A stretch of DNA of 64,000 bases from Rhodothermales bacterium (GTDB lineage Bacteria > Bacteroidota > Rhodothermia > Rhodothermales > Bin80): NCBI GenBank assembly GCA_965116685.1, contig OZ220707.1, forward strand, positions 787,655 through 851,654. Reading direction: 5' to 3'. The position numbers and the translations under genes are program-made. The notes under the pieces were generated by a model. The model searched no databases. It saw only the letters and a program-made list of their open reading frames with translations, and was not told where the DNA came from. This document shows, piece after piece, positions 12,810-34,337 of the stretch; position 1 is the stretch's first letter; each line of letters opens with the position of its first letter.

Positions 12810-12886
12810 GTTTGGTAAGCTGCGCAGATATGGAAGGGGCTGTTTCCTGCCTCGTCCATGCCGGCTTACCCTAGATGTAACTGCTT

Positions 12887-15089: not shown

Positions 15090-15098
15090 CTCAGGGCC

Positions 15099-17126: not shown

Positions 17127-17207
17127 GGAAATTCCAGATGCTTTCGCGCTCACGAAATCATTCAGGTCTCTGACCCGTAAATGTTTCTTGATGCGGTTTG
17201 AAGCGGA

Positions 17208-17969
17208 TCAAAAATCTGTGTCCGGCTCAATAAGATCAAGCTCATGGATCCAGATATTCCGATAGCGTACATCATGACCTTCGGCTTGCAATTTTAACCC
17301 GCCGGGGACATCTGTGATACCGCGTCCCTCATCATTTCCACCATCTATACCCGAATTGGGGCCTCCCCATACTTTCTGGATTGGCACATTCTCGTGAACC
17401 TTAACCCCATTAAAATAAAGTGTCACCATGGCGGGCTCTGTTCGCTCGTCCTCTGAAAAACGAGCAGCTCGGAATACCACATCATACGCGTTCCACTGCC
17501 CTGTGCCATTATACGGCCAGTATGAAGATGCCTTCTCATTGATGACTGCAGCCATACCATGTACCGTCGAATCACCATCCAGTACCTGGATCTCATAACG
17601 GTTCTGGAGATATACACCACTGTTCCCACCCGTTTCAGTAATCAAGAACTCGACGTGCATGCGGAAGTCACGGAATTTCTTCTTGGTTACAATATCCGCT
17701 GCACCATAGAGCCCCCCTATCGCTGCAGAATCCTTGCTGCTGACCACTGTCCCCTCATCCACTGGATCGTCGACAATTTTCCATTTTATGGGTAGCTCTA
17801 CTGCAAATCGGGGACCTTCCCAGTAGGTCCAATTCTCGTCAAGTGCCTCCCGGGTTCCGTCAAAAAGAACCATGGCCCCCTCTGGAGCAGGTGTACCAAC
17901 GCCGGTTTGAGCCTGCGCCGGAAGGGCAATAAGGATCAGAAGCAGAAAAGGGATGATTTTTTTATGCAT
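17208..17969 (-). CDS. DUF1080 (3-keto-disaccharide hydrolase-like, concanavalin-type) secreted protein
   Basis: It has a signal peptide MHKKIIPFLLLILIALPAQAQ. Motifs are FRMHVEF...GNSGVYLQNRYEIQVLD and a C-terminal LQAEGHDVRYRNIWIHEL, typical of DUF1080. Confidence 0.85.
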   Translation of the reverse strand: MHKKIIPFLLLILIALPAQAQTGVGTPAPEGAMVLFDGTREALDENWTYWEGPRFAVELPIKWKIVDDPVDEGTVVSSKDSAAIGGLYGAADIVTKKKFRDFRMHVEFLITETGGNSGVYLQNRYEIQVLDGDSTVHGMAAVINEKASSYWPYNGTGQWNAYDVVFRAARFSEDERTEPAMVTLYFNGVKVHENVPIQKVWGGPNSGIDGGNDEGRGITDVPGGLKLQAEGHDVRYRNIWIHELDLIEPDTDF

Positions 17970-18075
17970 GAGTTTACTTGTTTGAACAGTGGGACAAGGT
18001 AAGCATTATTTGTGATTTTAACAACCTGAACCTGATGCCTGGAGGACGGTAGGAAAGGTTAAACAATATCTGGCC

Positions 18076-18540
18076 ATGGAACAAGCAACCTTTGGAGCCG
18101 GCTGTTTTTGGGGAGTGGAATTGGTTTTCCAACAGACACCCGGTGTTATCGATACTGCAGTGGGCTATTCTGGCGGAGTCATAAAAAACCCAACCTATCG
18201 CGAGGTCTGTTCAAAACGTACGGGGCATGCGGAGGTTGTGAACATTACTTTTGACCCGACTGTGGTTGAATATGCGCAGCTGCTGGGTATTTTCTGGGAA
18301 AATCACAATCCCACAACCTTAAACCGCCAGGGACCAGACGTAGGCTCTCAGTATCGTTCCGTCATCTTCTATCACTCCGATTTACAAAAATCAGAAGCGG
18401 AAAAGTCATTGCTTCGGAGACAGATGCAGCTGGCCGATCCCATTGTAACGGAGATCGTTCCTGCATGCATGTTTTATCGTGCGGAGGAACACCACCAGCG
18501 ATATCTGGAAAAGCGTGGGCTGACCCACTGCCATGTGTAG
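18076..18540 (+). CDS. msrA: Peptide-methionine (S)-S-oxide reductase
   Basis: The catalytic motif is ATFGAGCFWGVE. GYSGG...NPTYREVCS..TGHAEVV and EHHQRYLEK are all canonical for MsrA. Confidence 0.95.
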   Translation: MEQATFGAGCFWGVELVFQQTPGVIDTAVGYSGGVIKNPTYREVCSKRTGHAEVVNITFDPTVVEYAQLLGIFWENHNPTTLNRQGPDVGSQYRSVIFYHSDLQKSEAEKSLLRRQMQLADPIVTEIVPACMFYRAEEHHQRYLEKRGLTHCHV

Positions 18541-18545
18541 GCCTG

Positions 18546-20426
18546 CTATAAAGTATAGCCAGTCACAAAGGCTTCGGCAGCATAAAATTCAGGTAACCCG
18601 AGGCGGTTCAGAGCTTCCGCTGTTGCCGTGTTACGATCCTGTGCCCTTTGCCAGAATTCTCGATCGTCGTGTGCGCCGGGGAACATTGCCCGATCCTTCT
18701 GACTCTCGTGCTTGAAAATGGCCTCAATCTTACGCGCCATCTCTGCTCTTGAGATAGGAGTAAATACATCGGCTTGGTGGATTTCCCATTCCTGCCATGC
18801 ACCACGGTAGAGCCAAACCATTGGCCCCTGTACTCCCCTTTCGCGATTGTAGTGCGCCAAGGCCATCTTGATCGCAACATAACAGACCCGATGGGTGCCA
18901 TGAGGGTCCGAAAGATCCCCAGCCACAAAAATATGATCGGGCTCCTGTTCGTTCATGAGCTCCAAGATAATCTGAGCATCTTCCTCCCCCACCGGTTTCT
19001 TCTTGATCCATCCGGTCTGGTAGAATGGCAAGTCAATAAACCGTGCATTCGACCGACTGAGTCCCATCACCTCAATCCCTGCAATCGCCTCCGCATATCG
19101 GATGGCAGACTTGATATGCTGCACGGAAGGAAGATCTATCTCGCCGGCGGACTTGTTTTTTAGAAATCTTAACAAATCCTCTCGGCATGCCCGGAAAACC
19201 TTCGCTGCTTCTCCGGTAATCCCAAGCTCATTCAGGCACATTTCTACAAACCCCAGATAACGGGATACATCCGCATCAAAAACAGCAACCGATCCATTGG
19301 TCATGTACGCAACAACAATCTCGTTCTGATTCCGAGTCAGCTTATCCAGCATTCCTCCCATGGAGATTACATCATCATCCGGGTGGGGGCTAAAGAGAAT
19401 CACGCGTTTGCCCTTGGGAAGCTGATTCTGATAACGAATCCTGTGACGCAAGTCTTCAAATACACGCAAGCATATCTCGTCAATTTCCGGATAGGCATAG
19501 ACCAGGCTGTGAAGGCGATTATTATGAAAATCTGCCTCCTCTAACTGAAGAATCGCTTTCCCGACACGATCAGATAGCCAGATGATCGCACGCTTGGCCA
19601 TTTCCAGGTCCCATTTCACATCAGAGACCAGCCACGGGGTCTGTTCCCTAGTCAGCCCACCTGCCGCAGCACGATCCAGATAGACCGCACTTTTCGGGTG
19701 TTCTCGTAAATAGGAGGCTGTTACCTCCTCATTAATCGAATCTTCAACTGCTCGTCGGATGATCTCGGCCTTGCCTTCCCCGGTGGCCATGAGGACGATT
19801 TCGCGGGAATCCAGGATCGTCCCTACACCGACCGTCAAACCTTGTCGGGGGACATGCTCATCTCCAAAGAAATGACTGGCAGCATCTTTTCGGGTAATTG
19901 AATCCAGGATTACCTTCCTGGTCCGATCACTCCGTGAGCTTCCCGGCTCATTGAACGCAATATGTCCACTTCGCCCAATCCGTAGCAAAACAAGGTCCAG
20001 CCCCCCGGCATCCTGAATCATTTCCTCATAGGAGTTGCACCATTCATCTACATGGTCTTCCACCAAATTCCCAGGCAATCCATGTGCCTGATCCGCTGGA
20101 ACATTGATGTGCTTCAGGAGATTTTCCCGAAGAAATCGGTAATGGCTTTGCATACGGCCTGGATCAATCGGGTAATACTCCGCCAAATCAAAGGTGATGA
20201 CCTTGGAAAAATCCAAGCCATCTTCCTGATGCATCCGAATCAACTCCTTGTATACATCCAGAGGGGTGGACCCGGTGGGAAGACCAAGAACCGTGTTCAG
20301 TCCCAGGGACGTACGCTCTTTGATGAGCGCCCCGATGTAGTGTGCAACCTCAAGTGCCAGAGACGCTGCGTCCTCGAAAATATGTACTGGTAAATGCTCA
20401 CGATACGAATCCATAGGAGTTGACAT
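18546..20426 (-). CDS. nagB: Glucosamine-6-phosphate deaminase, long form (NagB domain fused to a LmbE/PIG-L-like domain)
   Basis: The N-terminal NagB/6-PGL fold is LGLPTGSTPL...LLRIGRSGHIAFNEPGS. The C-terminal domain has the PIG-L motif SPHPDDDVISMGG and HPDH-like IFVAGDLSDPHGTHR. Confidence 0.9.
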   Translation of the reverse strand: MSTPMDSYREHLPVHIFEDAASLALEVAHYIGALIKERTSLGLNTVLGLPTGSTPLDVYKELIRMHQEDGLDFSKVITFDLAEYYPIDPGRMQSHYRFLRENLLKHINVPADQAHGLPGNLVEDHVDEWCNSYEEMIQDAGGLDLVLLRIGRSGHIAFNEPGSSRSDRTRKVILDSITRKDAASHFFGDEHVPRQGLTVGVGTILDSREIVLMATGEGKAEIIRRAVEDSINEEVTASYLREHPKSAVYLDRAAAGGLTREQTPWLVSDVKWDLEMAKRAIIWLSDRVGKAILQLEEADFHNNRLHSLVYAYPEIDEICLRVFEDLRHRIRYQNQLPKGKRVILFSPHPDDDVISMGGMLDKLTRNQNEIVVAYMTNGSVAVFDADVSRYLGFVEMCLNELGITGEAAKVFRACREDLLRFLKNKSAGEIDLPSVQHIKSAIRYAEAIAGIEVMGLSRSNARFIDLPFYQTGWIKKKPVGEEDAQIILELMNEQEPDHIFVAGDLSDPHGTHRVCYVAIKMALAHYNRERGVQGPMVWLYRGAWQEWEIHQADVFTPISRAEMARKIEAIFKHESQKDRAMFPGAHDDREFWQRAQDRNTATAEALNRLGLPEFYAAEAFVTGYTL

Positions 20427-20730
20427 GGGGAATTAAGGAGATCTGAGATCAGTCCACCAGCGTTTTACCCCGACGCAGCAACCCTGCTCCAGAAATCCCA
20501 AAATTTCATGCCACAACTGCGATTATCCACGGAAGCTACGCAATGTTGATGAGAAAAACTTGGAATTCTGACTGCTTTTTCGTACCTTGTACCTTAATGT
20601 ATTTGTGCCAAATTTCACACTGCACTGCCTGCACTGCTGGGCGAAATCCTGGTTTCCAACTTGGGAGATCGAGGATTTACAATGAAGCTTGTGGATAAAA
20701 AATTGCGAAGACAAATCTATTTCGGTGGTT

Positions 20731-21510
20731 ATGGCCCAACTGACCAATGTATTGTTCGTCACAGGAGAAATTGACCCATTTGCTAATGAAAGTGACATTG
20801 GAATATTAACGCGCTATTTACCCAAGGGGCTGAGTGAAGATGGTTCTTTTGCAACCAGGATTATGATGCCGCGCTATGGGACGATCAGTGAGCGGAAAAA
20901 TCGACTACACCAAGTGATTCGCCTCTGCGGTACAAAGGTGAGTATGGGCAGCCAGACAGAAACACTTGCCGTCAAGGTCGCAGCAATTCCCGGAACACGG
21001 TGCCAAGTCTACTTCATGGACAGCAAGCGCTTTTTTAAACGAAAAGGTTTGCACCAGGATAATTTGGGGAATACGTTTGACGATAATTCGGCACGTGCAC
21101 TCTTTTTTGCGCGCTCAACTCTGGAAACCGTGCGCAAGTTACAATGGAAACCCGATGTCGTCCATGCGTTCGGCTGGATCAGTGGCTTTTTGCCCTTACT
21201 CTTGGCGACGGAATACAAGAATGATGAATTATTTGAATCCGTTAAAACAGTAGTCTTTACTCCAGATCGTATTGAGGCGGATGCGGTCATTTCCAATGAC
21301 CTCATTAAGAATATGAAGCTTTCACTCAATGGGGATATTTCTGGAATGAGTCTGTCTGATCTGGGTGCCAAATTTTCGGATATTGTCGCGTACCCTCCCT
21401 CTCTGACCCCAGACTCTGAAACATCGGTACATTTCAGTACCGATACGCAGGAAATGATTTTGCAAGCCACGGATCTCTATCAAATGGCATGCAGTGCCGA
21501 ACCCGCCTGA
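20731..21510 (+). CDS. Short glycogen/starch-synthase-like protein (N-terminal catalytic-domain half only)
   Basis: MAQLTNVLFVTGEIDPFANESDIG...MPRYG matches the Glyco_transf_5 starch-synthase N-terminus. It is only about 260 aa, as in the short Bacteroidota form. The ORF opens at a GTG at 20689. Confidence 0.75.
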   Translation: MAQLTNVLFVTGEIDPFANESDIGILTRYLPKGLSEDGSFATRIMMPRYGTISERKNRLHQVIRLCGTKVSMGSQTETLAVKVAAIPGTRCQVYFMDSKRFFKRKGLHQDNLGNTFDDNSARALFFARSTLETVRKLQWKPDVVHAFGWISGFLPLLLATEYKNDELFESVKTVVFTPDRIEADAVISNDLIKNMKLSLNGDISGMSLSDLGAKFSDIVAYPPSLTPDSETSVHFSTDTQEMILQATDLYQMACSAEPA

Positions 21511-21630
21511 CCGGGAACATCAAGCCTGTCTTTGAGGGTATCTTCCCGTTGGCCGTGCTTTAGAGTGCCAATATCGTCGATTCCTCGTTCTTGGGCCACT
21601 ATCTTGCCCATCTCGATCATTTTATGCGTT
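21469..21630 (+). repeat. Left copy of a 162-bp imperfect direct repeat bounding the accessory island
   Basis: It aligns colinearly with 27599..27760 at an exact offset of 6130 bp. I count roughly 17-20 differences by eye, including two compensating 1-nt indels. It covers the last ~42 nt of the glycogen-synthase-like CDS, the intergenic region and ATGCGTT. Confidence 0.9.
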
Positions 21631-21863
21631 TAATGGCACCCCGGCGAAAGACCATACCTCTCCGCAACAAAAAAGGCGAAATTATCAACTTGGATCATCA
21701 CAATAATCATGATAAGACTCTTGAAATGCCACTTGATGTGGAGAACATCCTAAACCATTCTCCGGTTCTATGAACAGGTACCGCAGGATAGAATATCAAT
21801 ACAGGCGGCAAGGGAGTTTTTTGCGTTTATGTATTTTACGCAAAGTATGGAAATGAGGGCAAT

Positions 21864-23450
21864 ATGACGCAGAAAAAGAAGAAATCATCTAGAAAAAAAG
21901 CCGCATCTGAGGCAAACAGTGCTACCGTCGGATACGAAGCCGAGCTCTGGGATATGGCCAACGCGCTCCGGGGAAGTATGGACGCGGCCGAATACAAGCA
22001 CGTCGTTTTGGGACTCATATTTCTCAAGTACATATCCGATGCATTTGAGGAAAAACGGCGGGAGCTCGAAACACAGATATCCGAGGGAACGGATCCAAAT
22101 GACCCCGATGAATACCGTGCGGAAAACATATTCTGGGTGCCTCCTGAAGCCCGCTGGCAGGATATAAAGGCACAGGCAAGGCAGCCTACTATTGGGAAAC
22201 TCGTCGATGATGCCATGATGGGGATCGAGCGAGTGAACAGAGAGCTTAAGAGTGTCCTGCCAAAAAACTATGCCCGCCCAGCGCTGAATAAACAAAGACT
22301 TGGCCAGGTAATTGATCTTATAAGCAACATAAATGTCGGCGACAGAAATGCACGGTCAAAAGATGTTCTGGGGAGGGTCTACGAATATTTTCTCTCGCAA
22401 TTTGCAAATGCCGAAGGCAAGAAAGGGGGAGAGTTCTACACCCCCCGCTGTGTAGTGAAACTGCTGATGGAGATGCTTGAACCCTACGGGGGACGAGTTT
22501 ATGACCCATGCTGCGGCTCTTCAGGCATGTTTGTACAATCCATTGAATTCGCTGCAGCGCACGCGGGAGGAAGTGTCAGGGGAAGATCGAAGCTTCCTAA
22601 AGGCGTCAGACCTAATATTTCAATCTACGGACAGGAATCAAATTATACGACTTGGTGTCTCGCAAAAATGAATTTGGCCATTCGCGGCATTGAAGGCCAG
22701 ATTGCCCACGGAGACACTTTTCTCGATGATCGATTCCCCGATCTTAAGGCCAACTTCATTCTCGCTAATCCACCGTTCAACGTAAGTGACTGGGGAGGAG
22801 AAAGGCTTAGGGAAGACAAGCGCTGGAAATACGGCATTCCACCCAAGGGAAATGCGAATTTCGCGTGGGTGCAGCACATGGTTCACCACTTAGCACCCGG
22901 CGGTACGGCGGGTTTCGTGCTCGCAAACGGCTCTATGTCTTCTTCCCAGAATGCCGAGAGCGAAATCAGGAAAAACCTTGTAGAGGCGGGCATAGTCGAC
23001 TGCATCGTGGCACTTCCAGGACAGCTTTTCTATTCAACGCAGATTCCTGCGTGTCTCTGGTTTCTCTCGCGCCGGAAAGGAGAGAAAATTCTTTTTATTG
23101 ACGCGCGTATGCTCGGCCGCATGGTTGATCGCACACACAGGGAACTTACATATGAGGAAATCTGCCGCGTAGCCGAAACGTATCGTGCGTGGAGAGTCGA
23201 GAAAAATACTGGAGAATACAAAGATGTCTTGGGGCTTTGCAAAAGCGTGGATCTGGATGAGGTGCGGCGCCATGGCTATGTTCTCACTCCGGGGCGCTAC
23301 GTGGAAGCAGAGATCGAAAAAAATGACGACGAGTTATTTGAAGACAAGATGAAGCGTCTTACCTTAAAACTCCGCAAGCAGCGGGAAGAGGCAGTCAAGC
23401 TTGACGCAGCCATAACCTCCAATCTTAAAAAACTGGGATATGATACCTGA
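21864..23450 (+). CDS. hsdM: Type I restriction-modification system, DNA methyltransferase subunit M
   Basis: The HsdM N-terminal domain is [34 protein letters not shown]. The AdoMet motif is [12 protein letters not shown] and the catalytic motif is NPPFN. Confidence 0.95.
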
Positions 23451-23498
23451 TGACACAAATTTTATGTATTGTATATCGGAGGATACAATCGTAACACA

Positions 23499-23921
23499 AT
23501 GAAACTTGATGTTAGTTCACTCGAACGCGCAGTGGGGGAAATGGGAGATTTTCTGGAGAAATTTAGAGGATATGAAGCCTCCGACGACGTTCTGTTTTTT
23601 CGGATGCTCCAAGCAGGCGTTATTAAAGCATTTGAATTCACCTACGAACTGTCCGTCCGCTTCATCCGGCGACAATTGTCCCAAACATCTTTTAACATAG
23701 CTAATGTTGATGCCTTGGATTTTCGCAACATGATGCGGGTTGCGGCGGATGCAGGGCTGATCGCCGAACCCAAAAACTGGTTTAAGTACCGAGAGAAGCG
23801 CAACATCACAAGTCATACCTATGACGAGTATAAGGCTCAGGAAGTTCTTGCTATTGCAGGTGATTTCTTGGAAGATGCCCGTTTCCTGCTTGCCGAACTT
23901 ACGAGAAGAAATGCTCCATGA
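23499..23921 (+). CDS. HEPN-domain nucleotidyltransferase substrate-binding protein (HI0074/HepT-like)
   Basis: AGVIKAFEFTYELSVRFIRRQL and the Rx4-6H HEPN motif RNITSHTYDE are present. Its stop overlaps the next start (ATGA at 23918-23921). The ORF track opens at a TTG at 23469. Confidence 0.8.
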   Translation: MKLDVSSLERAVGEMGDFLEKFRGYEASDDVLFFRMLQAGVIKAFEFTYELSVRFIRRQLSQTSFNIANVDALDFRNMMRVAADAGLIAEPKNWFKYREKRNITSHTYDEYKAQEVLAIAGDFLEDARFLLAELTRRNAP

Positions 23922-25453
23922 ACGCACGCATTGACATCTCGCCGGACGATCTGGAAACCGTCCAGGAAATTCTTGTCAATCATGTTCCCGAGCTTGAAGT
24001 CCGGGCCTTTGGGTCTCGTGTTACTTGGACAGCGAGGCAATACTCGGACCTTGATTTGGTATTAATGACGGCAGACCCGCTCGATATCTCGCGTCTTGCC
24101 GACCTGTGCGAGACCTTTTCGCAATCCGATCTGCCATTTCAAGTAGATATAGTGGACTGGGCTTCCACTTCTGAGAGTTTTCGGGAGATAATCAAAAAAG
24201 AATGTGTGGTTGTTCAGGATAAACCTGAAGACAAGAATAATAATTGGCCAATCATAAAACTAGATTATTGTGCCACACTCAGTGGCCAGACAATCTTGCC
24301 GTCTAACGCAATAGATTTACCGTATATAGGCCTAGAACATATTGAAAAAGGCCAGCTGCATCTTACAGGACATGGGAAAGCGAGCAGTGTTTCTAGCGTG
24401 AAAACACATTTTCACTACAACGATATCCTTTTCGGAAAACTGCGTCCATATTTCCGAAAAATCATCATGGCCCCTTTTGAAGGAATCTGCTCAACCGATA
24501 TCTGGGTTATCAGATCGAAGGAACATGTAGACCAGTTATTCCTTTTCTATTGTCTAGCTTCTCAAGCCTTTGTAAATTTCGCAACCCGTTCATCCGAGGG
24601 TACACGAATGCCAAGAGCAAAATGGGATTATGTTTCTCAATACGAAATTCAGCTTCCCCCGCTCCCCGAACAACGCACCATCGCTCACATCCTCGGCATG
24701 TTGGACGACAAGATAGAACTGAACAGGCAGATGAACAAAACACTGGAGGCGACGGTACGGGCGCTGTTCAAGTCCTGGTTCATCGATTTCGAACCGGTCC
24801 GGGCAAAGATGGAAGGTTGGGATACGGGCTTCCCGCATGACATCGCCGACCTGTTTCCTGACCGGCTGGTGGATTCCGAGATGGGAGAGATTCCAGAAGG
24901 GTGGGAGGTAAAGTTGCTGAAGGACTGTATGAACCTAACTATGGGGCAGTCACCACCGGGTAACACCTACAACAACCACGGAGACGGCTTGCCCTTCTTC
25001 CAAGGCCGAGCGGAGTTTGGTTTCCGCTATCCTGAGAAACGAAGATTCTGTTTCGCACCGACTCGCGTTGCGGATCCAGAGGATACGCTGGTCAGCGTCC
25101 GGGCGCCCGTCGGGGACATCAACTTGGCTTGGGAACGGTGTTGTATCGGACGGAGCTTAGCAGCACTGAGACACAAGTCGGGCTCAAACTCATTCACTTA
25201 CCATTCAGCTTGGGCCTTGCGGCGAGAATTTGAGCAATACGAGCAAACGGGAACCGTGTTCGGTGCAATCAACAAAGGTCAGTTTGAAGTCTTAAAGGTG
25301 GTGGAGCCCGACGCTCGCGTTATTGAAGCGTTTGACACTATAGCCGTAAACCTGGACGCGCGGATCAGATCGAACGTTAGTGAATCTCACGCCCTCGCCA
25401 CACTTCGCGACACGCTGCTTCCCGAGCTTCTTTCTGGAGAAGTTCGACTCTAA
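23918..25453 (+). CDS. hsdS: Fusion ORF: minimal nucleotidyltransferase (MNT/MntA-like, ~100 aa) joined in frame to a complete Type I specificity subunit HsdS (two target-recognition domains, TRDs)
   Basis: The N-terminus AFGSRVTWTARQYSDLDLVLM...FQVDIVDW is the GSx..DxD MNT signature. From about residue 105 there is a full HsdS, with TRD1, the central conserved region LPPLPEQRTIAHILGMLDDKIELNRQMNKTLE, TRD2, and the C-terminal conserved region LRDTLLPELLSGEVRL. No stop codon separates the two parts. Confidence 0.85.
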   Translation: MNARIDISPDDLETVQEILVNHVPELEVRAFGSRVTWTARQYSDLDLVLMTADPLDISRLADLCETFSQSDLPFQVDIVDWASTSESFREIIKKECVVVQDKPEDKNNNWPIIKLDYCATLSGQTILPSNAIDLPYIGLEHIEKGQLHLTGHGKASSVSSVKTHFHYNDILFGKLRPYFRKIIMAPFEGICSTDIWVIRSKEHVDQLFLFYCLASQAFVNFATRSSEGTRMPRAKWDYVSQYEIQLPPLPEQRTIAHILGMLDDKIELNRQMNKTLEATVRALFKSWFIDFEPVRAKMEGWDTGFPHDIADLFPDRLVDSEMGEIPEGWEVKLLKDCMNLTMGQSPPGNTYNNHGDGLPFFQGRAEFGFRYPEKRRFCFAPTRVADPEDTLVSVRAPVGDINLAWERCCIGRSLAALRHKSGSNSFTYHSAWALRREFEQYEQTGTVFGAINKGQFEVLKVVEPDARVIEAFDTIAVNLDARIRSNVSESHALATLRDTLLPELLSGEVRL

Positions 25454-25458: not shown

Positions 25459-25710
25459 CGAATCGTTCGCTCCCGACACCTCTTCCGATGCAAAGAGAAC
25501 TCCAAGATGAGCGAGGCAGAGATGTTTGAACGACATTTTGACGGCATCTGCAATGCTCTTTGTCATGGACAGTCCAACGCCAAAGCATGCAACGGCAAAA
25601 TCCAGGAGGTCAAAACCATCGGTAGAGGATGCAGAACGTTTGAAAACTTTCGAGTTGCGATCCTTTTCTTCTGCGGAGGACTAGACCTCTATCCACAACA
25701 TTCGGGGTAG
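25459..25710 (+). pseudogene. C-terminal remnant of an ISL3-family transposase
   Basis: The frame reads ...HFDGICNALCHGQSNAKACNGKIQEVKTIGRGCRTFENFRVAILFFCGGLDLYPQ. This matches the conserved ISL3/IS1001-type C-terminus (sN...EG.N.KIk.iKr.a.GfRn.enF...i.f..GgLdLyP). Only about 60-80 codons are present and the catalytic domain is missing. Confidence 0.6.
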
Positions 25711-25754
25711 AACCAAATATTTTGAAGGAAATTGGAGTCTGTAGTGATAAGCCC

Positions 25755-26888
25755 ATGCCCCACATAAAGCATTTTTCCGTTCGCGGCTTCAAGTCAATTC
25801 GTGAGCTCGAAAATTTCGAATTGAAACCTCTGAATGTGCTGATCGGTGCCAACGGAGCCGGTAAAAGCAACCTTCTGAGTCTGTTTAAAATGCTCTCCGC
25901 CCTTTCGCAGAAGCGTCTTCAGCTTTTTGCCAAAAACGAGGGTGGCCCGAATGCATTGCTGTTCGGCGGACGAAAACTAACTTCAAAGCTTGAAATAGCC
26001 CTGTCATTTGAAAACAACCACTACGAATACGCGTTTTCACTCGAACCGACAACTGACTCAGTAGCCTTTTCCGGCGAGAAGCTCTTCCCAGGAGTCGCTG
26101 GAGATTTCAGCGCTGAAGATTTCAACACTGGCGGTTTCAAAACAGAGGCCGGTGCCTCAGTATGGCCCGGCGGATATAGCGAATCATGCGTGGCGGATAT
26201 TAAGTATGGGGAATTTGCATCTTATTTTTTGCCCAATATGAGACGCTGGCGCGTGTTTCACTTTCAGGACATGAGCGATACGGCTCACGTGCGAAATCAG
26301 TCGAAGGTACGCGACAACCTTCGACTAAGACCGGACGCTGGGAATCTTGCACCTTTTCTGCGCAATCTCCGTGAACATCATCCTGACCACTATCAAAGAA
26401 TCATAAATGTAGTCCGCCTCTCGGTTCCGTTTTTCGGAGACTTCGTCTACCGCAAGAATCTGGGCGACAGCATGGATCTTGAATGGTTTGAGGAATGGGG
26501 AGACTCGGACACACCGTTTGGTCCCCGACAGCTCTCAGGCGGTACGTTGCGTTTCATCTGTCTTGCTACTCTGTTAAATCAGCCGGAAAACCTCCAGCCG
26601 AACCTCATTCTCATTGACGAACCCGAGCTGGGGTTGCATCCATTTGCACTGACGCTACTGGCCGAAATGATCCAGCAGGCAGCCGACTTGCGACAGATTA
26701 TTGTCTCAACGCAATCCGCGGAACTTATAAGTCATTTTGAACCCGAAGATATCGTGGTCGTCGATCGCAAGAACGATGAATCCGTCTTTAAAAGGCTGGA
26801 CTCAGAATACCTTGCCGACTGGCTTGAAGATTACACGCTCGACGAGCTCTGGAAAATGAACGTGCTTGGTGGCAGACCCCGACCATGA
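25755..26888 (+). CDS. ABC/SMC-like AAA ATPase (AAA_21/AAA_15-type)
   Basis: Walker A LIGANGAGKSNL, ABC signature QLSGGTLRF, Walker B LILIDEPELGLHP. The H-loop position reads STQS. The ORF opens at a TTG at 25722, but the ATG at 25755 (MPHIKHFSVRGFKSI) is preferred. Confidence 0.85.
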   Translation: MPHIKHFSVRGFKSIRELENFELKPLNVLIGANGAGKSNLLSLFKMLSALSQKRLQLFAKNEGGPNALLFGGRKLTSKLEIALSFENNHYEYAFSLEPTTDSVAFSGEKLFPGVAGDFSAEDFNTGGFKTEAGASVWPGGYSESCVADIKYGEFASYFLPNMRRWRVFHFQDMSDTAHVRNQSKVRDNLRLRPDAGNLAPFLRNLREHHPDHYQRIINVVRLSVPFFGDFVYRKNLGDSMDLEWFEEWGDSDTPFGPRQLSGGTLRFICLATLLNQPENLQPNLILIDEPELGLHPFALTLLAEMIQQAADLRQIIVSTQSAELISHFEPEDIVVVDRKNDESVFKRLDSEYLADWLEDYTLDELWKMNVLGGRPRP

Positions 26889-27454
26889 AGACGGTCATTA
26901 TTGCCTGCGAAGGAGGAACTGAAGAAGCTTTTGTGAACAAATTTCTCTGTCATAAGCTCTGGCCAAAAGGAGTGTTTGCAGAACCACGCCTCATCCCGAC
27001 TTCGCGTCGTGAAAAAGGCGGTGCACTTAGCGGACAACGCGTACTCCGCTACCTTCGAAATACCCTTCGGGAACGGCAAAACACCTATGTCACGACATTT
27101 TTCGATCTGTTTTCCCTGCCGAAGAACTTCCCTGGGCTTGAGGACATCTCCGAGACGACGAACCCACTTAAACGCGCGACAGAAATCGAGACTGTATTTC
27201 GTGATGCCGTTATACGCGAAGCAAGATGTCGGCGCGAACGCTTTTTTCCTCACATTCAGCCCTATGAATTCGAAGCTCTGCTGTTTTCGGACACGACCGG
27301 TTTTGTGAAGGTGGAACCCGAATGGAAGGCATTTGCCGGGAAACTCGCGAGCATACGCGAAAATTTTGAAAGTCCTGAGTACATAAACGACGGAACCAAT
27401 ACGCATCCCTCAGCGCGACTTCAGAATCTTCGGTATTGTTTCAACTCAGAATGA
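26885..27454 (+). CDS. DUF4276-like protein (possible Toprim-like effector), possibly C-terminally truncated
   Basis: There is an ATGA overlap with the ATPase gene. The motifs IIACEGGTEEAFV, IQPYEFEALLFS and PEYINDGTNTHPSARL match my recollection of the DUF4276 family pattern. The protein stops shortly after the PS.RL motif, where family members usually continue for about 30-40 more residues. Confidence 0.65.
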   Translation: MKTVIIACEGGTEEAFVNKFLCHKLWPKGVFAEPRLIPTSRREKGGALSGQRVLRYLRNTLRERQNTYVTTFFDLFSLPKNFPGLEDISETTNPLKRATEIETVFRDAVIREARCRRERFFPHIQPYEFEALLFSDTTGFVKVEPEWKAFAGKLASIRENFESPEYINDGTNTHPSARLQNLRYCFNSE

Positions 27455-27464
27455 AACAATACCG
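27431..27464. terminator. Perfect 13-bp stem hairpin overlapping the DUF4276-like stop codon
   Basis: The sequence is cggtattgtttca actcagaa tgaaacaataccg. The stop TGA (27452-27454) lies inside the 3' arm. Confidence 0.5.
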
Positions 27465-27598
27465 CTTTCGAGCGTGCACATTACGTAGTACCGGGCGGTC
27501 ACCACCAAAGTAGGCGTCCTCCTGTAAAGGGCTCGAGTATACAATCAGCGGTAGATCGTGATGAGCACAGAACCGCCTCATGCCTTCAGTGATACAGA

Positions 27599-27760
27599 AC
27601 GGATCTCTATCAAATGGCATGCAGTGCTGAACCCGCCTGACTGGGAACATCGAGCATGTTTCGAGGGTACGCCTTTGTTGGTCGTGCTTTAGAATACCAA
27701 TATCGTCGGCTTCCTCGTTCTTGGGCTATTGTCTTGCCCATCTCGGTCATTTTATGCGTT
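27599..27760 (+). repeat. Right copy of the 162-bp imperfect direct repeat bounding the accessory island
   Basis: See the left copy. It contains a pseudo 3' end of the glycogen-synthase-like gene (TDLYQMACSAEPA-stop, one silent change) plus the functional upstream region and start codon of the next core gene. Confidence 0.9.
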
Positions 27761-28869
27761 CAATTCTTTTTTTCTTTCTACTGACTGCCCCACTGGTGAT
27801 GGTCTCCTGCTCGGATGCCGTCTCCGATGTCGGCTTGGACCTCCTGGGGAGCGAAGTAAATCTTCAGACAAAAACGGTGCGGGTCACCTCATTTTCAGCA
27901 TCTGAACTGGTTGATATCACGGGATCTGCACCCCGTGTGCTCGTGGGATCTGTTAACGATCCTCTGACTGGACAGATTGCAACCCATGGCTTTCTTGACT
28001 TTGCCGGCGATTTTTCTGGAGCCCCATCGGATAACATTAGTCGTGTCCAACTAAAACTTTCCCGTAATTATAATTTTGGAGATACCCTGGCGACGGTTCA
28101 ATTTGAGATCCATCAAATTCTCCAGGAATGGAATCATACCGGACGCCGATCCAATACCAGCCTAGACGTCGGTCCTGCTATTATGACCGTAACCACTGAG
28201 GATATGCTGACGATTGTGGATCTGCCGGACTCATGGATTAGTGAGAATGAAGATGTACTTCGGAGCGATGACTTTGAGACGGAATTTCACGGATTCGCCC
28301 TGATCGAAAATGGCAGTGGCCAGGTGATTGGCTTTACCTCTACCACGACCGTTTTGGAGGTAACCTCATCCGGCGGATTGACTACCTACAACGTAAGCAG
28401 TACCCATACACAGATTGAGCGTTCGCGCCCTTCTGACACACCAAGTGGATTTTTACTGTTCCAGGATGGCGCAGGACCTGCAATTGAGCTTAACTTTGCA
28501 TTTGATGAATTTGAGAACCAACCCATTAATGGCGTGGAGTTGATCTTCCGCGTGGATACCACTGCTAGTCAGGTCGCTCCAGAGAACTTTGTCCGCCCTC
28601 TTCCACGTGTCCTACAATTGGTTGCCGTTCCTATAGACGATACCGATCCTGCCGCCCTGGTTGGACAGGCGACGATCAATGATGGAAATTATCGCTTCTC
28701 GGAACGCGATGTTAGTGTCTTTTTCCAGCGTGTATTTTTTGGGTCACAGCAGTATAGCCGTCTGGAATTACGCGCTCCTATTGTAAATCATTCCCTGAAC
28801 GCTGTGCTGTTTTACGGTGCAGATGCCCAGGATTTATCTCCCCGGGCAACTATTATTTTGTCTCCATGA
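27754..28869 (+). CDS. Lipoprotein, possibly DUF4270 family
   Basis: It has a signal peptide and lipobox MRSILFFFLLTAPLVMVSC. Its position immediately downstream of the short glycogen-synthase gene is where a DUF4270 gene sits in many Bacteroidota. The family call rests on context rather than motifs. Confidence 0.55.
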   Translation: MRSILFFFLLTAPLVMVSCSDAVSDVGLDLLGSEVNLQTKTVRVTSFSASELVDITGSAPRVLVGSVNDPLTGQIATHGFLDFAGDFSGAPSDNISRVQLKLSRNYNFGDTLATVQFEIHQILQEWNHTGRRSNTSLDVGPAIMTVTTEDMLTIVDLPDSWISENEDVLRSDDFETEFHGFALIENGSGQVIGFTSTTTVLEVTSSGGLTTYNVSSTHTQIERSRPSDTPSGFLLFQDGAGPAIELNFAFDEFENQPINGVELIFRVDTTASQVAPENFVRPLPRVLQLVAVPIDDTDPAALVGQATINDGNYRFSERDVSVFFQRVFFGSQQYSRLELRAPIVNHSLNAVLFYGADAQDLSPRATIILSP

Positions 28870-30140
28870 GAAGGCATTGGCTACTTTTTGTATTCACGGC
28901 ATTCCTCCTAGCGCCTGCTGTTTACGGTCAGGGACGGGACGATGGCTCCTTCTATTCGCGGTATGGAATCGGTGAACTGAGCTCTTTTGCATCCAGTCAA
29001 GCACATGCTCTTGGGGGTGCAGGGGTTCCACTCTTTTCGTATGACTACATGAATTTCAGCAACCCTGCAACATGGAGCCGCCAAGCCCTGGTCCGCGTAG
29101 CTGTTGGAGCCCAATTTGATCAATTGCGTGCCCAAGATGCAGCCGGAAGAAGTGAGCAGTTCGTGCGTGGCAACTTTAATGCACTGCAGATTGGTGTCCC
29201 ACTTATGAATACGAAACTAGGGCTCGGACTTTCGTACGAACCCTACAGCCGAATGCATTACAAAATATCCACAAACAGTACCTTGGAATTACCGTCGGGC
29301 GAGGATCAATTGTACCAGATCAACCATGAAGGATCGGGGGGCTTACATATGGCACGAATCGGAATGGGCCTACAACTCACATCCTGGGCCTCCATTGGTG
29401 CCTCTGCTGACTTCCTGTATGGAATCACCGAAGAAGTGCGCCGTACTGCATTTGGAAATGCGGATCTCCTGGAAACAAATTTGGCAACCAGCACACGCAT
29501 GTCAGGCTTTACCTCTTCCATGGGGATCGCTATATCCCTTGATGGTGAAAATTATGAATTGGTTCTTGCTGCCAGCGGCCGCCTGCCGGTGACTCTGGAA
29601 GGTACCCGAACACTCACTCTGGGAGAGAGCCTGAACCTTGATACGCTTGGAACCGCACGTAGCGGAGACATCAAGCTTCCTTACCGGCTCAATGGAGGGG
29701 CGTCTTTTCGATATCAAAATCGCTGGCTGGTTAGTGCTGAGGTTCGACATGAGCCTTGGTCAACCGCATCCACTGCACTCCCCTTCGCAGCCTTTGAGTC
29801 AAATCACCTGCGTGACCGCACACGCTACTCCGGGGGAATTGAGTTTGTCCCGGCGGGTGCTTCCATGCAGGCAACCTACCTGCGCCGAACCGCATACCGC
29901 TTGGGGATCTACAGGGATAACCTGTATGTCAGCCCCGTTGCCGGAAGAGATATTGTAGTGTCTGCCATCACAGGAGGATTTGGACTACCTACATTGTTTT
30001 TAGGTAGCAGGCTTGACATATCCTTTGAAATCGGAACACGTGGCTCCACCAGTTATAATTTAATCCGAGATCGGTTTATCGGAGTTTCGGCCACTCTGAA
30101 CATTGGGGAACGCTGGTTCGTCAAGCGAAGACTTGGATAA
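28866..30140 (+). CDS. Putative outer-membrane beta-barrel protein
   Basis: It has a signal peptide (LLFVFTAFLLAPAVYGQ) and alternating-hydrophobic, Gly/Ser/Tyr-rich composition throughout. There is a 4-nt overlap with the upstream lipoprotein gene. Confidence 0.5.
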   Translation: MRRHWLLFVFTAFLLAPAVYGQGRDDGSFYSRYGIGELSSFASSQAHALGGAGVPLFSYDYMNFSNPATWSRQALVRVAVGAQFDQLRAQDAAGRSEQFVRGNFNALQIGVPLMNTKLGLGLSYEPYSRMHYKISTNSTLELPSGEDQLYQINHEGSGGLHMARIGMGLQLTSWASIGASADFLYGITEEVRRTAFGNADLLETNLATSTRMSGFTSSMGIAISLDGENYELVLAASGRLPVTLEGTRTLTLGESLNLDTLGTARSGDIKLPYRLNGGASFRYQNRWLVSAEVRHEPWSTASTALPFAAFESNHLRDRTRYSGGIEFVPAGASMQATYLRRTAYRLGIYRDNLYVSPVAGRDIVVSAITGGFGLPTLFLGSRLDISFEIGTRGSTSYNLIRDRFIGVSATLNIGERWFVKRRLG

Positions 30141-30197
30141 AGTGGCTTAATTATGTTTTCTTGCTTAAATTATCCACTTACTCAACCCCGAATTCTC

Positions 30198-31469
30198 ATG
30201 CACCGTACCCTTATTCCTCTCTCAACTGTCTTGGCAACCTTTATCCTATTGGTGCCAACCGTTCGGGCACAAGCCACTTCGGGTGACCAGGAGACGCGCA
30301 TCCATTACAGTCTCTATTATGAGAACTACAAGAATGAGAATTACCGGGACGCGGTATCCGACCTCGTATGGATACTCTACAATGCACCTGGATTCAGCCG
30401 CAACAGCGATGTAAACTTCAGGCGTGCAATTGAGACCTTCCAGGCTTTGGCCAACGAGGAGGATGATGAGGCAGCAAAACGTGTCTGGTTGGACTCGGCA
30501 TTGGTTCACTATGATCGAGTGATTCCCGTCCTTTCCGAACTTGAAGCTGATTTTGATCCCTTTATCTGGACTCGAAACAAGGGGCGTTTTATCCAAACCA
30601 ATATCAACGAACTCGCGGACCATCGTTCCAGTATGGTCGCGGCATATCGGGGAACGTATGAGATGGATCCGAAGCGAATCGATCCCTATTATCTTGATGT
30701 CATTATCTCAGATATGTATCAGTCAGGAGATATCGGAGGAGCACTGGATTTCTTGCGTGAACTTAGGAGTCAGCGGGGAGATGAGGAAAGCATTGATGGC
30801 CTGATCCACAAGTACTTTGTCGTCATTCCCCCCGATGAGCAGATTGCCTTCTTGGAAGAACAATATGAGGTCGAACCCGATAATGCGGAACTGGTCATAC
30901 AACTTTTTGAGTTGTATCAACAGGAAGCTTATCGTGAGAAAATGCTCGCTCTGGCAGATAAGGTTCTCTCTCTGGAACCGACTGCCGCAACGCTGCGGCT
31001 GCTGACCAGAATGTATGTGGAAGATGGGGATAATGAACGAGCCATCGAAACATTCCGCCAGATGGAAGCCATCCCAGACATTGAAATTCGTTCTCAGGAC
31101 TATTACAATTTGGGACTTGCCTATCAAGATATGGAAGATTTTCGTCAGGCAAGGGATTATTTTCGAGCAGCCTCAGATGCAGACACAGACTTTAAGCCTG
31201 CCCAGGTCGCGATTCCAAACCTCTATTCGACAGCCGTTGCCAGCTGTGGAGTCGCGGACCGCGAGCAAGCAGCCGTTTTTTGGATTATTGCGGACCAGTA
31301 CGCCCGGATTGGTGACCAGGATGGAGTGAGCCGAATGGCAACCGCGTTCCCAACCGCCGAAGATATTTTTTATGTTGCCGACTGGAGTAACGGTGAAAGT
31401 GCTCAGGTAAGTTATACATGCCGGGGGATGACAATCAGTGGGACAACGACCGTCCGACAGCGCCGCTAG
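30198..31469 (+). CDS. Tetratricopeptide-repeat (TPR) protein, secreted
   Basis: It has a signal peptide MHRTLIPLSTVLATFILLVPTVRAQ and several TPR-like helical repeats (e.g. YYNLGLAYQDMEDFRQARDYFRAA). The ORF opens at 30153. Confidence 0.65.
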   Translation: MHRTLIPLSTVLATFILLVPTVRAQATSGDQETRIHYSLYYENYKNENYRDAVSDLVWILYNAPGFSRNSDVNFRRAIETFQALANEEDDEAAKRVWLDSALVHYDRVIPVLSELEADFDPFIWTRNKGRFIQTNINELADHRSSMVAAYRGTYEMDPKRIDPYYLDVIISDMYQSGDIGGALDFLRELRSQRGDEESIDGLIHKYFVVIPPDEQIAFLEEQYEVEPDNAELVIQLFELYQQEAYREKMLALADKVLSLEPTAATLRLLTRMYVEDGDNERAIETFRQMEAIPDIEIRSQDYYNLGLAYQDMEDFRQARDYFRAASDADTDFKPAQVAIPNLYSTAVASCGVADREQAAVFWIIADQYARIGDQDGVSRMATAFPTAEDIFYVADWSNGESAQVSYTCRGMTISGTTTVRQRR

Positions 31470-31749
31470 CCGATCATGCAACTCCACCATGGCCCGTCTA
31501 TCGTTCTGTAATGAAAGACCCGGACGATCCATTCTCCTTGAAATCCTATTCTGTGCCTACTTCAATCCGTTGCCGATACATTGTGGTCATCGAACGATCA
31601 ATCAAATAGGTGCTTGAAGATTCTTTCATCCAGATTGCAAAATTCTTTGAGCGGGATTCTTTTGCCCAATGACGAACCTATTGATAACTCTCCCCTTTCA
31701 TACTCACTACCCATACTTCTATGGGTTGGGTGCAGGGGACTCATTGTAG

Positions 31750-33054
<1,305 letters not shown>

Positions 33055-33063
33055 AGAAAGTTC

Positions 33064-33375
33064 ATGATGGCCAAGACAAAACAACCGGGCTCAAAACGCA
33101 GACGGCTCTCGCCTCTGGTCCTGATTGGTTCTGCAATTGCAGTATGGCTACTGCTGCAATTTGTCTGGTTTGACAGCTATAGCTGGAGGCGCTATCAAGA
33201 TTGGCAGAAAGAACATGAGGAACTCCTCAAAGAAAATGCCCGGCTACAGTCTGAAATTATAGAGCTTCAGGCCTTGCTTGAAGCCCCACCAAGTGATGAA
33301 GTCATTGAAAAAATCGCACGTGAGCAATACGGCATGCGGCGCGAAGGAGAAACTGTTTATCGAGTAGAGGAATAA
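33064..33375 (+). CDS. Septum formation initiator family protein (FtsB/DivIC-like)
   Basis: 103 aa with one N-terminal TM helix, then a coiled coil (ELLKENARLQSEIIELQ) and IEKIAREQYGMRREGE. It follows eno, as in many bacteria. Confidence 0.7.
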   Translation: MMAKTKQPGSKRRRLSPLVLIGSAIAVWLLLQFVWFDSYSWRRYQDWQKEHEELLKENARLQSEIIELQALLEAPPSDEVIEKIAREQYGMRREGETVYRVEE

Positions 33376-34337
33376 TGCAAGCAATCGGTATTGATCTAGG
33401 CGGCACTTATATCAAGGCAGCACTGGTGCATAAAGCATTTGGTCTTGTCAAGACCAACTCCGTTGAGACGGGTGCCGACATGGGCAAAGACCATGTACTG
33501 TCACAAATCGCAGCGGCTGTAAAACCGTTGATGCGACGTAAAGGGCGTATTGCGGGGATTGGTATTGGAGCCCCCGGCTCCATTGATCTCGACAGAAAAA
33601 ATCTGATTCATCCTCCAAATATGCCAGGTTGGGGGGTGGTTGACCTACGCCAGGCCTTGAAAAAACGCTTAGGCCGACGTCTCAATGTCTTTGTTGAAAA
33701 TGATGCCAATGCAGCTGCGCTTGGATCTGGACGCTACGGGGCGGCGCGGAATCATGACCACTATATCATGGTCACACTCGGTACGGGGGTCGGCGGATCG
33801 ATTGTGTTTAACAAGCGGATTTTTCGTGGAGAGACTGGGGCAGCAGGCGAGATTGGACATGTATCTATTGATTACAATGGGCCACCCGACATGACCGGTG
33901 TGAACGGGGCCGTTGAAGCCTACCTTGGTCAGCGATTCCTGACCGGACATGCACGGGAGCAACTTGGACAATACCCAGACAGTATGCTGCACGCAGCTCC
34001 AGGTCTGGAAAACCTTACGCCAGCCACTATTACAGAAGCGGCCATGAATAACGACCCCGGGGCCATTGCGGTCCTTGAGTGGGCAGGCAAAAAGCTGGGC
34101 TGCGTTCTGGGGGGCATCGTCAATTTACTGGATATACGCACCATTGTGATTGGTGGCGGGGTTTCAAAAGCCGGAGATATGCTCCTGAAGCCTGCCCGGG
34201 ATGTCATCCTGTCCTACATTAAGCCCGGCATGCATGAAGATGTGACCGTAATCCAGGAAACGCTCGGGAATGAGGCTGGTATGCTTGGAGCAGCCTGCCT
34301 TGTGTTCGACCAAATTGATGACGAGAAGAAGAAATGA
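33375..34337 (+). CDS. ROK family sugar kinase (glucokinase-like)
   Basis: Motifs are GIDLGGTYIKAALV, VENDANAAALG and TLGTGVGGSIV, plus GEIGH. The usual ROK zinc-cysteine motif appears to be absent. Confidence 0.8.
   Translation: MQAIGIDLGGTYIKAALVHKAFGLVKTNSVETGADMGKDHVLSQIAAAVKPLMRRKGRIAGIGIGAPGSIDLDRKNLIHPPNMPGWGVVDLRQALKKRLGRRLNVFVENDANAAALGSGRYGAARNHDHYIMVTLGTGVGGSIVFNKRIFRGETGAAGEIGHVSIDYNGPPDMTGVNGAVEAYLGQRFLTGHAREQLGQYPDSMLHAAPGLENLTPATITEAAMNNDPGAIAVLEWAGKKLGCVLGGIVNLLDIRTIVIGGGVSKAGDMLLKPARDVILSYIKPGMHEDVTVIQETLGNEAGMLGAACLVFDQIDDEKKK

Follow-up and report, generated by a model that had tools for sequence, protein, structure and literature searches.

The 64,000-nt stretch of Rhodothermales DNA analysed here (hereafter, the window) carries a small island that is bracketed by an imperfect 166-bp direct repeat, located by repeat search and pairwise alignment. 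The left copy (21469..21634) takes in the 3′-terminal part of the host gene upstream, the intergenic DNA and the opening codons of the host gene downstream; the right copy (27599..27764) leads into the latter gene in its intact form (27721-28869). The copies (repeat families D1-D3) lie at a spacing of 6130 nt, and their pairwise similarity stops at 21634 and 27764. All genes of the island are on the forward strand. The first of them, hsdM (21864..23450), encodes an apparently intact Type I restriction-modification (R-M) methyltransferase of 528 aa (Pfam N6_Mtase, 3.8e-103, and HsdM_N, 1e-26; PADLOC MTase_I, 1e-201), and a HEPN-type (HI0074/NTase_sub_bind) gene within the R-M operon follows at 23469..23921 (Pfam NTase_sub_bind, 4.8e-28; NCBIfam HI0074, 9.7e-23). 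Overlapping this HEPN gene by 4 nt is a fusion gene (23918..25453) in which an MNT-type nucleotidyltransferase (residues 1-105; Pfam Polbeta, 2e-09) is joined in frame to a full-length HsdS (Pfam Methylase_S, 4.4e-20; PADLOC Specificity_I, 7e-97); the same MNT::hsdS fusion was called in two related loci (L002 and L003), and 20 of 20 related loci have its frame uninterrupted. Beyond it lies a remnant of an ISL3-family transposase, reduced to its last ~50 residues (25507..25710; Pfam DDE_Tnp_ISL3, 4.9e-08, profile positions 190-240 of 240), and the sequence between hsdS and the next gene, which encodes an ATPase, was lost by an IS-associated rearrangement. The defence-island context of Type I R-M plus HEPN-MNT genes, which an earlier note had recognised without database searches, was borne out by Pfam, PADLOC and the related loci.

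The last two genes of the island, an ATPase gene (gene 1; ORF 25722/25755-26888) and a DUF4276 gene (gene 2; ORF 26885-27454), are joined by the ATGA stop/start overlap (26885-26888) reported in that note. The likely start of gene 1 is the ATG at 25755, the family profile for the ATPase (HEC-01A, see below) aligning from residue 14 of the longer, TTG-started ORF. For comparison we sampled 80 related loci, with overlap and motif counts made over 79 of them and hsdR counts over 75. The ATPase gene stands immediately upstream of the DUF4276 gene in all 80, and because the same -4 geometry recurs in 65 of 79 pairs, the 4-nt overlap is a family trait and not a chance arrangement. Every motif that had been quoted for the two products was found, i.e., GANGAGKSN, QLSGGTLRF, LILIDEPELGLHP and IIVSTQS in the first, and IIACEGGTEEAF, FEALLF and PEYINDGTNTHPSARL in the second.

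The pair had been put forward as an uncharacterised system without a name. It maps at full strength to the PADLOC models HEC-01A and HEC-01B, so that the absence of a named counterpart in PADLOC, on which the proposal of novelty depended, largely falls away. The product of gene 1 (25755..26888; 377 aa from the ATG, full length) matches HEC-01A (PDLC04175) at 6.2e-129, with residues 14-386 of the longer ORF on profile positions 5-362 of 363, and at least nine further HEC-01A models stand among the 25 best PADLOC matches listed for it. Gene 2 (26885..27454; 189 aa) matches HEC-01B (PDLC04188) at 9.9e-53 and is adjacent to and co-oriented with gene 1. Judged by these profile matches, the pair is a member of the HEC-01 family (ABC ATPase plus DUF4276), a candidate anti-phage pair that is already catalogued and known. 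Payne et al. (bioRxiv 10.1101/2024.01.29.577857) described this family, which they defined from Hma-embedded cassettes, and their tests in RM-less E. coli showed no protection. The cassette studied here resembles those of HEC-01 in being a two-gene, co-oriented unit within a methylation-based defence operon; it differs in that the host operon is Type I R-M, as it is in two thirds of the relatives, and in that its B protein is without the last ~45 residues.

The earlier identification of gene 1 as an SMC/ABC-like ATPase can be sharpened to a soluble, OLD-like ABC ATPase of a defence-associated family (Pfam AAA_21, 1.3e-27, and AAA_15, 3.7e-16). Its motifs are Walker A (G31-N39), the signature (S261-G262-G263), Walker B and D-loop (I287-DEPELGLHP-296) and a glutamine at the H-loop position (T319-Q320-S321). 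The reading of STQS where a histidine is usual was accurate; because the glutamine is invariant in 79 of 79 relatives, it is, on this alignment, a family trait and not a lesion. In the signature, the window ATPase has S-G-G where the 79 relatives have invariant S-D-G. The best matches of this ATPase are by far to defence-family models (HEC-01, mad3, AriA, AbiLi, Old and GajA in PADLOC). That the pair might instead serve DNA repair or chromosome maintenance, as an SMC/RecF-like ATPase with a nuclease whose defence context is incidental, draws on weak matches to SMC_N (Pfam, 3.9e-13) and RecF (NCBIfam, 8.9e-06) and on stand-alone pairs located among metabolic genes, but these matches are confined to the ATPase motifs, the family is patchily distributed and linked to R-M operons across phyla, and the island is bracketed by direct repeats and holds an IS remnant, and we consider such a housekeeping role extremely improbable.

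The second protein was correctly assigned to DUF4276 (Pfam PF14103, 8.6e-32; 111.4 bits against a cut-off of 30.2), a family of about 4,000 clusters at 50% identity (E up to 0.001); a search of 50,697 phage records turned up no relative of it. It is, however, truncated at its 3′ end. Full-length relatives cover positions 1-192 of 192 of the Pfam profile, and the protein in the window covers only 1-154; likewise, only positions 12-187 of 230 of the HEC-01B profile are matched because the gene is truncated. Its residues 1-182 are homologous to the relatives, after which it diverges from all of them. The relatives measure 224-242 aa in the aligned set and mostly 221-240 aa over the 80 loci, among which only two ORFs fall below 221 aa. 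The lost segment holds two of the nine invariant positions (F212 and W215) and five of the 23 near-invariant ones (Y187, K189, G193, I200 and C209), and in an AF2 model of a full-length relative with 85% identity (pLDDT 90.6) it forms four confident helices. Reading on past 27454 in the remaining two frames, we found no trace of this C-terminus. A zinc site of C8, C115, C209 and H211, proposed from the alignment of close relatives, was rejected, only C209 being near-invariant in a diverse alignment.

The cause of the truncation is evident from comparison (blastn) with a syntenic Rhodothermales locus, L001. Positions 25725-27429 of the window correspond to L001 8826-10545 and positions 27466-34000 to L001 14065-20606, and the intervening part of L001 (10546-14064), which includes hsdR at 10784-13816, is absent. 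At the junction (27430..27465), ~36 bp of filler replaces ~3.5 kb made up of the 3′ end of the DUF4276 gene, the whole of hsdR and 250 bp, and the last seven residues of the truncated protein (RYCFNSE) and its stop codon are read from this filler. One deletion of ~3.5 kb thus took the last ~45 DUF4276 codons together with all of hsdR. A tblastn search over the 64-kb window detected no HsdR, and the Type I system is incomplete, with hsdM and hsdS present and hsdR absent. The filler contains a hairpin with a perfect 13-bp stem, CGGTATTGTTTCA-N8-TGAAACAATACCG, of fold energy -22.1 kcal/mol (z -4.7). It is unique in the window, where no other copy was found that would mark it as a repeat element or IS end, and the possibility that it is an intrinsic terminator was dismissed, as terminator prediction did not call it.

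In intact relatives the operon order is hsdM, HEPN, MNT::hsdS, variable cargo, ATPase, DUF4276 and hsdR, seen directly in L001-L003, and this was the ancestral layout of the present operon. Across many phyla the order ATPase-DUF4276-hsdR is fixed: hsdR lies immediately downstream of the pair in 49 of 75 related loci, and the gap to it is no more than 168 nt in 49 of the 50 loci with hsdR. About a third of the pairs adjoin no R-M gene and so speak against an obligatory tie to Type I restriction; in ~24 of the 75 loci the pair sits amid housekeeping genes with no R-M gene nearby, and no other defence system recurred as a family among the neighbours of these non-R-M loci. In addition, 13 plasmids carry the pair.

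Given this deletion, the locus is very likely a decayed HEC-01 member within an hsdR-less Type I remnant, and this, together with the mechanism set out below for the family, is in our view the best explanation. Both the cassette and the restriction arm of the window copy are probably inactive, as judged from the lesions in their genes, and hsdM and MNT::hsdS may act as an orphan methylase. Some observations sit less easily with decay. Measured against L001, the ATPase has a dN/dS of 0.32 and residues 1-182 of the DUF4276 protein one of 0.20, values near those of the flanking genes and with no sign of long-term decay; similarly, in a leave-one-out comparison of conserved positions the ATPase deviates at 2 of 57 and the DUF4276 protein at 1 of 35, and neither is an outlier. 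Relaxed selection on the pair was rejected on these unremarkable ratios and few deviations. Because the dN/dS of the pair is similar to that of the flanking genes, the deletion may be recent. Moreover, the four invariant acidic residues (E9, D74, E128 and E165) are all retained in the truncated protein, which may on that account keep some residual activity.

The assignment of DUF4276 to the Toprim-like enzymes, which the earlier note had offered as a possibility, bears on what intact members of the family do. It agrees with two papers (bioRxiv 10.1101/2024.01.29.577857 and PMC12065111), the latter having already named DUF4276 a Toprim member and a homologue of Mad4. In the AF2 model of the full-length relative, strand 1 (residues 2-8) is followed by a helix (11-28) and by strands at 30-36, 68-74 and ~120-124, and the conserved glutamate directly after strand 1 of a beta-alpha-beta-alpha-beta-alpha-beta core is present; this residue, E9, is invariant in 130 diverse members and lies in an EGxTE motif that is the same as that of the Old Toprim domain (E398-G-K-T-E402). 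D74 ends strand 3. Of a DxD after that strand, however, the family keeps one invariant residue, D74 (in D-L-F/Y), and no second Asp, and the other invariant acidic residues, E128 and E165, are located elsewhere. Fold and profile searches were less favourable than motif and strand order. Foldseek with the confident model returned no significant match to known folds (best E 0.03 against PDB and BFVD, with no Toprim in the top 50), a sequence-profile search of the PDB gave spurious MIF matches only, and the Pfam matches up to E 10 included neither Toprim nor RloB. With hhalign, probabilities were very low both against a single P2 Old sequence and against an Old alignment; comparisons with the Old family gave 0.8% and 6.9%, and in the second of these the EGxTE motifs were aligned with each other. 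A Toprim-like nature is consistent with the literature, and the support that our own tests add is weak.

How intact members of the family might work can be approached through several named systems that share some of these features. The clade of the window ATPase and the P2 Old family, along with class 1 OLD proteins and Gabija GajA, have in common the Walker B/D-loop motif DEPEL.LHP, and the nuclease of P2 Old and GajA likewise has EG.TE after strand 1 and an Asp that ends strand 3. In P2 Old and class 1 OLD proteins, though, ATPase and nuclease are not separate proteins as they are here; the Old alignment has an invariant His in the H-loop (H332, in T-H-S) where the present family has Gln in 79 of 79 relatives (T-Q-S), and DUF4276 has a single invariant Asp and not DxD. 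In PARIS, too, a small putative Toprim nuclease is partnered by an ABC ATPase of the AAA_15/21 clade that is a protein of its own, and the way in which this system guards restriction against anti-restriction proteins offers a plausible parallel. The AriA models match the window ATPase at 4.4e-27 and 5.5e-17, far below HEC-01A, and the partner in PARIS is DUF4435 and not DUF4276, there being no match of gene 2 to the AriB/DUF4435 models in Pfam or PADLOC.

Flanked by hsdS and hsdR within a Type I operon, the pair is placed much as prrC is, which invites comparison with PrrC/RloC, RloA-RloB and AbiLi-AbiLii. PrrC itself occurs almost only inside Type I R-M loci (Payne et al., bioRxiv 10.1101/2024.01.29.577857), but it is one polypeptide, and its anticodon-nuclease domain is unrelated. 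As for the two-gene systems, the AbiLi model matches the window ATPase at 2.2e-24 (PADLOC), and the RloB and AbiLii models in Pfam and PADLOC do not match gene 2. MADS resembles the pair in that Mad3 and Mad4, an AAA_15/21-type ATPase and a DUF4276 homologue, are encoded in an operon with a methylase and a specificity subunit. The relationship is distant: the window ATPase reaches 95 bits with the NCBIfam MAD3 model, whose equivalog cut-off is 420, and is not a MADS orthologue. Furthermore, gene 2 matched nothing in NCBIfam and none of the mad models in PADLOC, and the family-assigned ORFs between the flanking repeats comprise only hsdM, HEPN, MNT::hsdS, the IS remnant and the pair, with none of mad6-8, which MADS requires, among them.

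According to the mechanism that we favour for intact members of HEC-01, the ATPase would bind and hold the DUF4276 nuclease, which would be a Toprim-like, metal-dependent enzyme with the four invariant acidic residues. The ATPase would serve as an ATP-dependent sensor or switch, and the glutamine in place of the H-loop histidine could make it a slow or regulatory ATPase. A phage cue would then release or activate the nuclease against nucleic acid. By analogy with PrrC and PARIS, this cue may consist in interference with the Type I enzyme encoded alongside. Against this account stand the doubtful Toprim fold of DUF4276 and the failure of HEC-01 to protect in the assays of Payne et al.

The fixed order of ATPase, DUF4276 and hsdR suggests, by analogy, a PrrC- or PARIS-like guard of Type I restriction. 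It is possible, if doubtful, that in intact relatives the pair is wired to HsdR as such a guard, in which the Gln-switch ATPase would monitor the restriction complex, or the phage anti-restriction proteins that block it, and would set the DUF4276 nuclease free once restriction has been put out of action. Equally tentative is the view that the two proteins belong to the Type I enzyme as accessory subunits, comparable to Mad3 and Mad4, and modulate loading, translocation or cleavage by HsdR. The tight spacing and fixed order upstream of hsdR would suit such a role, as would the lack of protection by HEC-01 alone in RM-less cells. Genetic results from MADS point the same way, in that deletion of mad3 or mad4 weakens defence, both being needed for full defence, and mad5 could not be deleted unless mad2 or mad3 was removed as well (Maestri et al.; bioRxiv 10.1101/2023.03.30.534895). 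But an accessory role is hard to reconcile with the pairs that lie amid housekeeping genes or on plasmids and with the distance from MADS, and in E. coli B a cold-seep HEC-01, cloned as one or both genes, conferred protection from one or more of T4, T5 and T7 (PMC12881386).

Less probable still is that the window pair remains a working two-gene abortive-infection system, its 189-aa DUF4276 protein retaining the catalytic core and the C-terminus being dispensable or regulatory. The full-length ATPase, the surviving acidic residues and the low dN/dS (0.2-0.3) all favour continued function, and about one third of related pairs persist, and perhaps work, without R-M neighbours. If the C-terminus were expendable, however, it would be difficult to account for the near-absence of short DUF4276 ORFs among the relatives and for the conserved positions and confidently modelled helices in the lost segment; the end of the ORF is, besides, junction filler, and the ATPase has a glycine at the otherwise invariant Asp of its signature.

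On the preferred reading of a decayed HEC-01 member, the appropriate annotation is that of a decayed HEC-01 cassette and not of a new system, and by itself the locus matters little. The by-products of the comparison are modestly useful for the study of HEC-01, the four invariant acidic residues being obvious targets for mutagenesis. If the pair does guard Type I restriction in intact relatives, the deletion described here removed guard and guardee together; and if the pair needs an R-M partner or an anti-restriction trigger, this might explain the conflicting phage assays of HEC-01.

The ATPase gene (25722/25755-26888) and the DUF4276 gene (26885-27454) that the earlier note had paired are both open reading frames on the same strand, translationally coupled through an ATGA at 26885-26888 in which the stop of the first overlaps the start of the second, and every motif that had been quoted for them was found. 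The ATPase likely starts at the ATG at 25755, since family profiles begin to align at residue 14 of the longer, TTG-initiated frame. Its Pfam matches are to AAA_21 (1.3e-27), AAA_15 (3.7e-16) and SMC_N (3.9e-13), and the assignment of its partner to DUF4276 was borne out (8.6e-32; 111 bits vs. a gathering score of 30.2). The view of the pair as an uncharacterised system did not survive comparison with PADLOC-DB: the ATPase matches HEC-01A (PDLC04175; 6.2e-129) over the full profile, with the AriA, AbiLi, Old, GajA and PtuA models matching it far more weakly, and the DUF4276 protein matches HEC-01B (PDLC04188; 9.9e-53), whose models were its only matches. Since the pair is PADLOC HEC-01, previously tested in two studies, it is not novel; the earlier interpretation holds in that the system is of a defence type and plausibly Toprim-like, but its novelty is lost to a named system, of which this instance is a decayed copy.

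Payne et al. (bioRxiv 10.1101/2024.01.29.577857) described HEC-01 as an ABC ATPase with a TOPRIM-like partner, carried within Hma systems, and saw no protection of E. coli from any phage in their tests. In a later study, a cold-seep HEC-01 cloned into E. coli B protected it from one or more of T7, T5 and T4 (PMC12881386). DUF4276 has been assigned to Toprim and described as homologous to Mad4 (PMC12065111), and deletion of either mad3 or mad4 reduces defence by MADS (bioRxiv 10.1101/2023.03.30.534895). Orthology of our ATPase to MAD3 was considered and rejected (95 bits against an NCBIfam cut-off of 420).

We scanned one genome per species and obtained 80 loci from many phyla, including Rhodothermales, Thermodesulfobacteriota, Spirochaetia, Acidobacteriota, Gamma-, Beta- and Alphaproteobacteria, as well as Chloroflexota, Deinococcota, Planctomycetota and Actinomycetota. 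The ATPase lies immediately 5' of DUF4276 in all 80, with a 4-nt overlap in 65 of 79. The pair is also consistently placed before hsdR, which follows DUF4276 immediately in 49 of the 75 loci whose downstream sequence extends for 1.5 kb or more, and starts within 168 nt of the DUF4276 stop in 49 of 50; hsdM occurs within 8 kb upstream in 36/80. Around the remaining ~24 loci we found no recurrent defence family, the neighbours being miscellaneous housekeeping genes. Thirteen plasmids carry relatives, usually with an AAA family ATPase annotated beside them, and 50,697 phage records contained none. Among 1.84 billion representatives, a profile search picked up 4,017 clusters with E <=0.001 and 970 with E <=1e-30. 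At one locus (L042, 7365-10157) the DUF4276-containing frame extends to about 718-930 aa, possibly as a fusion to a protein encoded downstream. DUF4276 deviates most in L083 and L056, with 8-9 changes at conserved positions, and tblastn matches that of L083 in two overlapping pieces.

The window DUF4276 gene is truncated. Its product has 189 aa vs. 214-242 aa in almost all of the 119 closest database relatives, and covers positions 1-154 of a 192-position Pfam profile that full-length relatives span entirely. In alignment it follows its relatives through HPSARLQNL (residue 182) and then ends in seven unrelated residues and a stop, lacking ~45 conserved residues (LRPRYKKV.HG..VS..IG...MRSEC.HFD.WL) of which no trace was found in other frames downstream. 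Nine residues are invariant across a diverse alignment of 130 members: E9, G10, F16, D74, E128, E165, P175, F212 and W215. The lost part holds the last two, together with five near-invariant positions, and forms four confident helices in an AF2 model (pLDDT 90.6) of a full-length relative with 85% identity.

The truncation lies at the edge of a 3.5-kb deletion. In the three closest loci (L001-L003) the order is hsdM, HEPN, MNT::hsdS (a nucleotidyltransferase domain fused to the specificity subunit), variable genes, ATPase, DUF4276 and hsdR, and L001, from a Rhodothermales MAG, is syntenic with the right side of the window (four shared genes followed by enolase, DivIC and ROK). Two blastn blocks connect them, 25725-27429 with L001 8826-10545 (91% identity) and 27466-34000 with 14065-20606 (94%); therefore, L001 10546-14064 is absent from the window, and with it the last 148 bp of DUF4276, the whole of hsdR (10784-13816) and ~250 bp beyond. 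A tblastn search found no hsdR across the 64-kb window. In place of the deleted DNA stand ~36 bp (27430-27465) containing a hairpin with a perfect 13-bp stem and an 8-nt loop (CGGTATTGTTTCA ACTCAGAA TGAAACAATACCG; -22.1 kcal/mol, z -4.7), which is unique within the window.

The ~6-kb island is flanked by imperfect 166-bp direct repeats (21469-21634 and 27599-27764; ~91% identity), each reaching from the 3' end of one host gene across the intergenic DNA into the first codons of the next, with no integrase between them. Between hsdS and the ATPase, a 67-aa frame (25507-25710) is an IS remnant, its match to an ISL3 transposase profile being confined to the final ~50 positions; relatives hold other cargo there, such as the 1254-aa SIR2_2 protein and DDE transposase of L001. 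At 23469-25453, HsdS carries an MNT-type nucleotidyltransferase as an in-frame N-terminal fusion and is preceded, with a 4-nt overlap, by a HEPN (NTase_sub_bind) gene. The arrangement recurs in L002 (4466-6518), L003 (5187-7584) and 20 of loci L005-L061, and the frame is open in 20/20 related loci, from several phyla, with an MNT match within 700 nt upstream of HsdS; a specificity subunit carrying a toxin-antitoxin-like antitoxin domain may merit a separate look. A tmRNA gene (8307-8675; tag peptide ANDYSYAMAA) is unconnected with the pair.

The ATPase remains full length, with the Walker A Lys, Walker B and D-loop (DEPELGLHP) conserved. Its 'H-loop' reads T-Q-S in 79 of 79 members, so the Gln is a family hallmark and not a lesion; P2 Old relatives also have DEPEL.LHP, but in them T-H-S is invariant. 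At residue 262 (from ATG 25755; 26538-26540) the signature reads S-G-G vs. S-D-G in 79/79 relatives, so that this otherwise intact protein alone departs from the invariant residue. Values of dN/dS against L001 (0.32 for the ATPase, 0.20 for DUF4276 residues 1-182) argue against long decay, and the damage may be recent. The window cassette is most likely inactive; hsdM and MNT::hsdS, which survive, may still function as an orphan methylase.

That DUF4276 supplies a Toprim-like effector, as the earlier note proposed, agrees with an EG.TE motif equivalent to Old E398-G-K-T-E402 and with the AF2 model, in which strands 1-4 (2-8, 30-36, 68-74 and ~120-124) are separated by single helices, with further helices after strand 4, and E9 lies after strand 1 and D74 at the end of strand 3, the Toprim arrangement described in PMC12065111. 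However, Foldseek of the model against PDB and BFVD gave no significant match, hhalign against the Old family gave probabilities of 0.8% (shallow profile) and 6.9% (diverse profile, pairing both EGxTE motifs), and the family has one invariant Asp where Toprim has DxD. Toprim membership is therefore likely on published grounds, our own formal tests being weak.

The two proteins would act as a complex, with a metal-dependent nuclease under the control of an ATP-dependent switch. PARIS, like HEC-01, is an ABC-ATPase/Toprim pair, and its trigger is an anti-restriction protein; prrC, of the classical Type I-linked anticodon-nuclease system, likewise sits between hsdS and hsdR. For these reasons, a role for the pair as a guard of restriction is attractive. 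That a third of loci stand alone argues that any link to Type I restriction is not obligatory. We think it rather unlikely that HEC-01 is functionally coupled to HsdR in intact relatives. Such a guard role could reconcile the conflicting phage assays on HEC-01.
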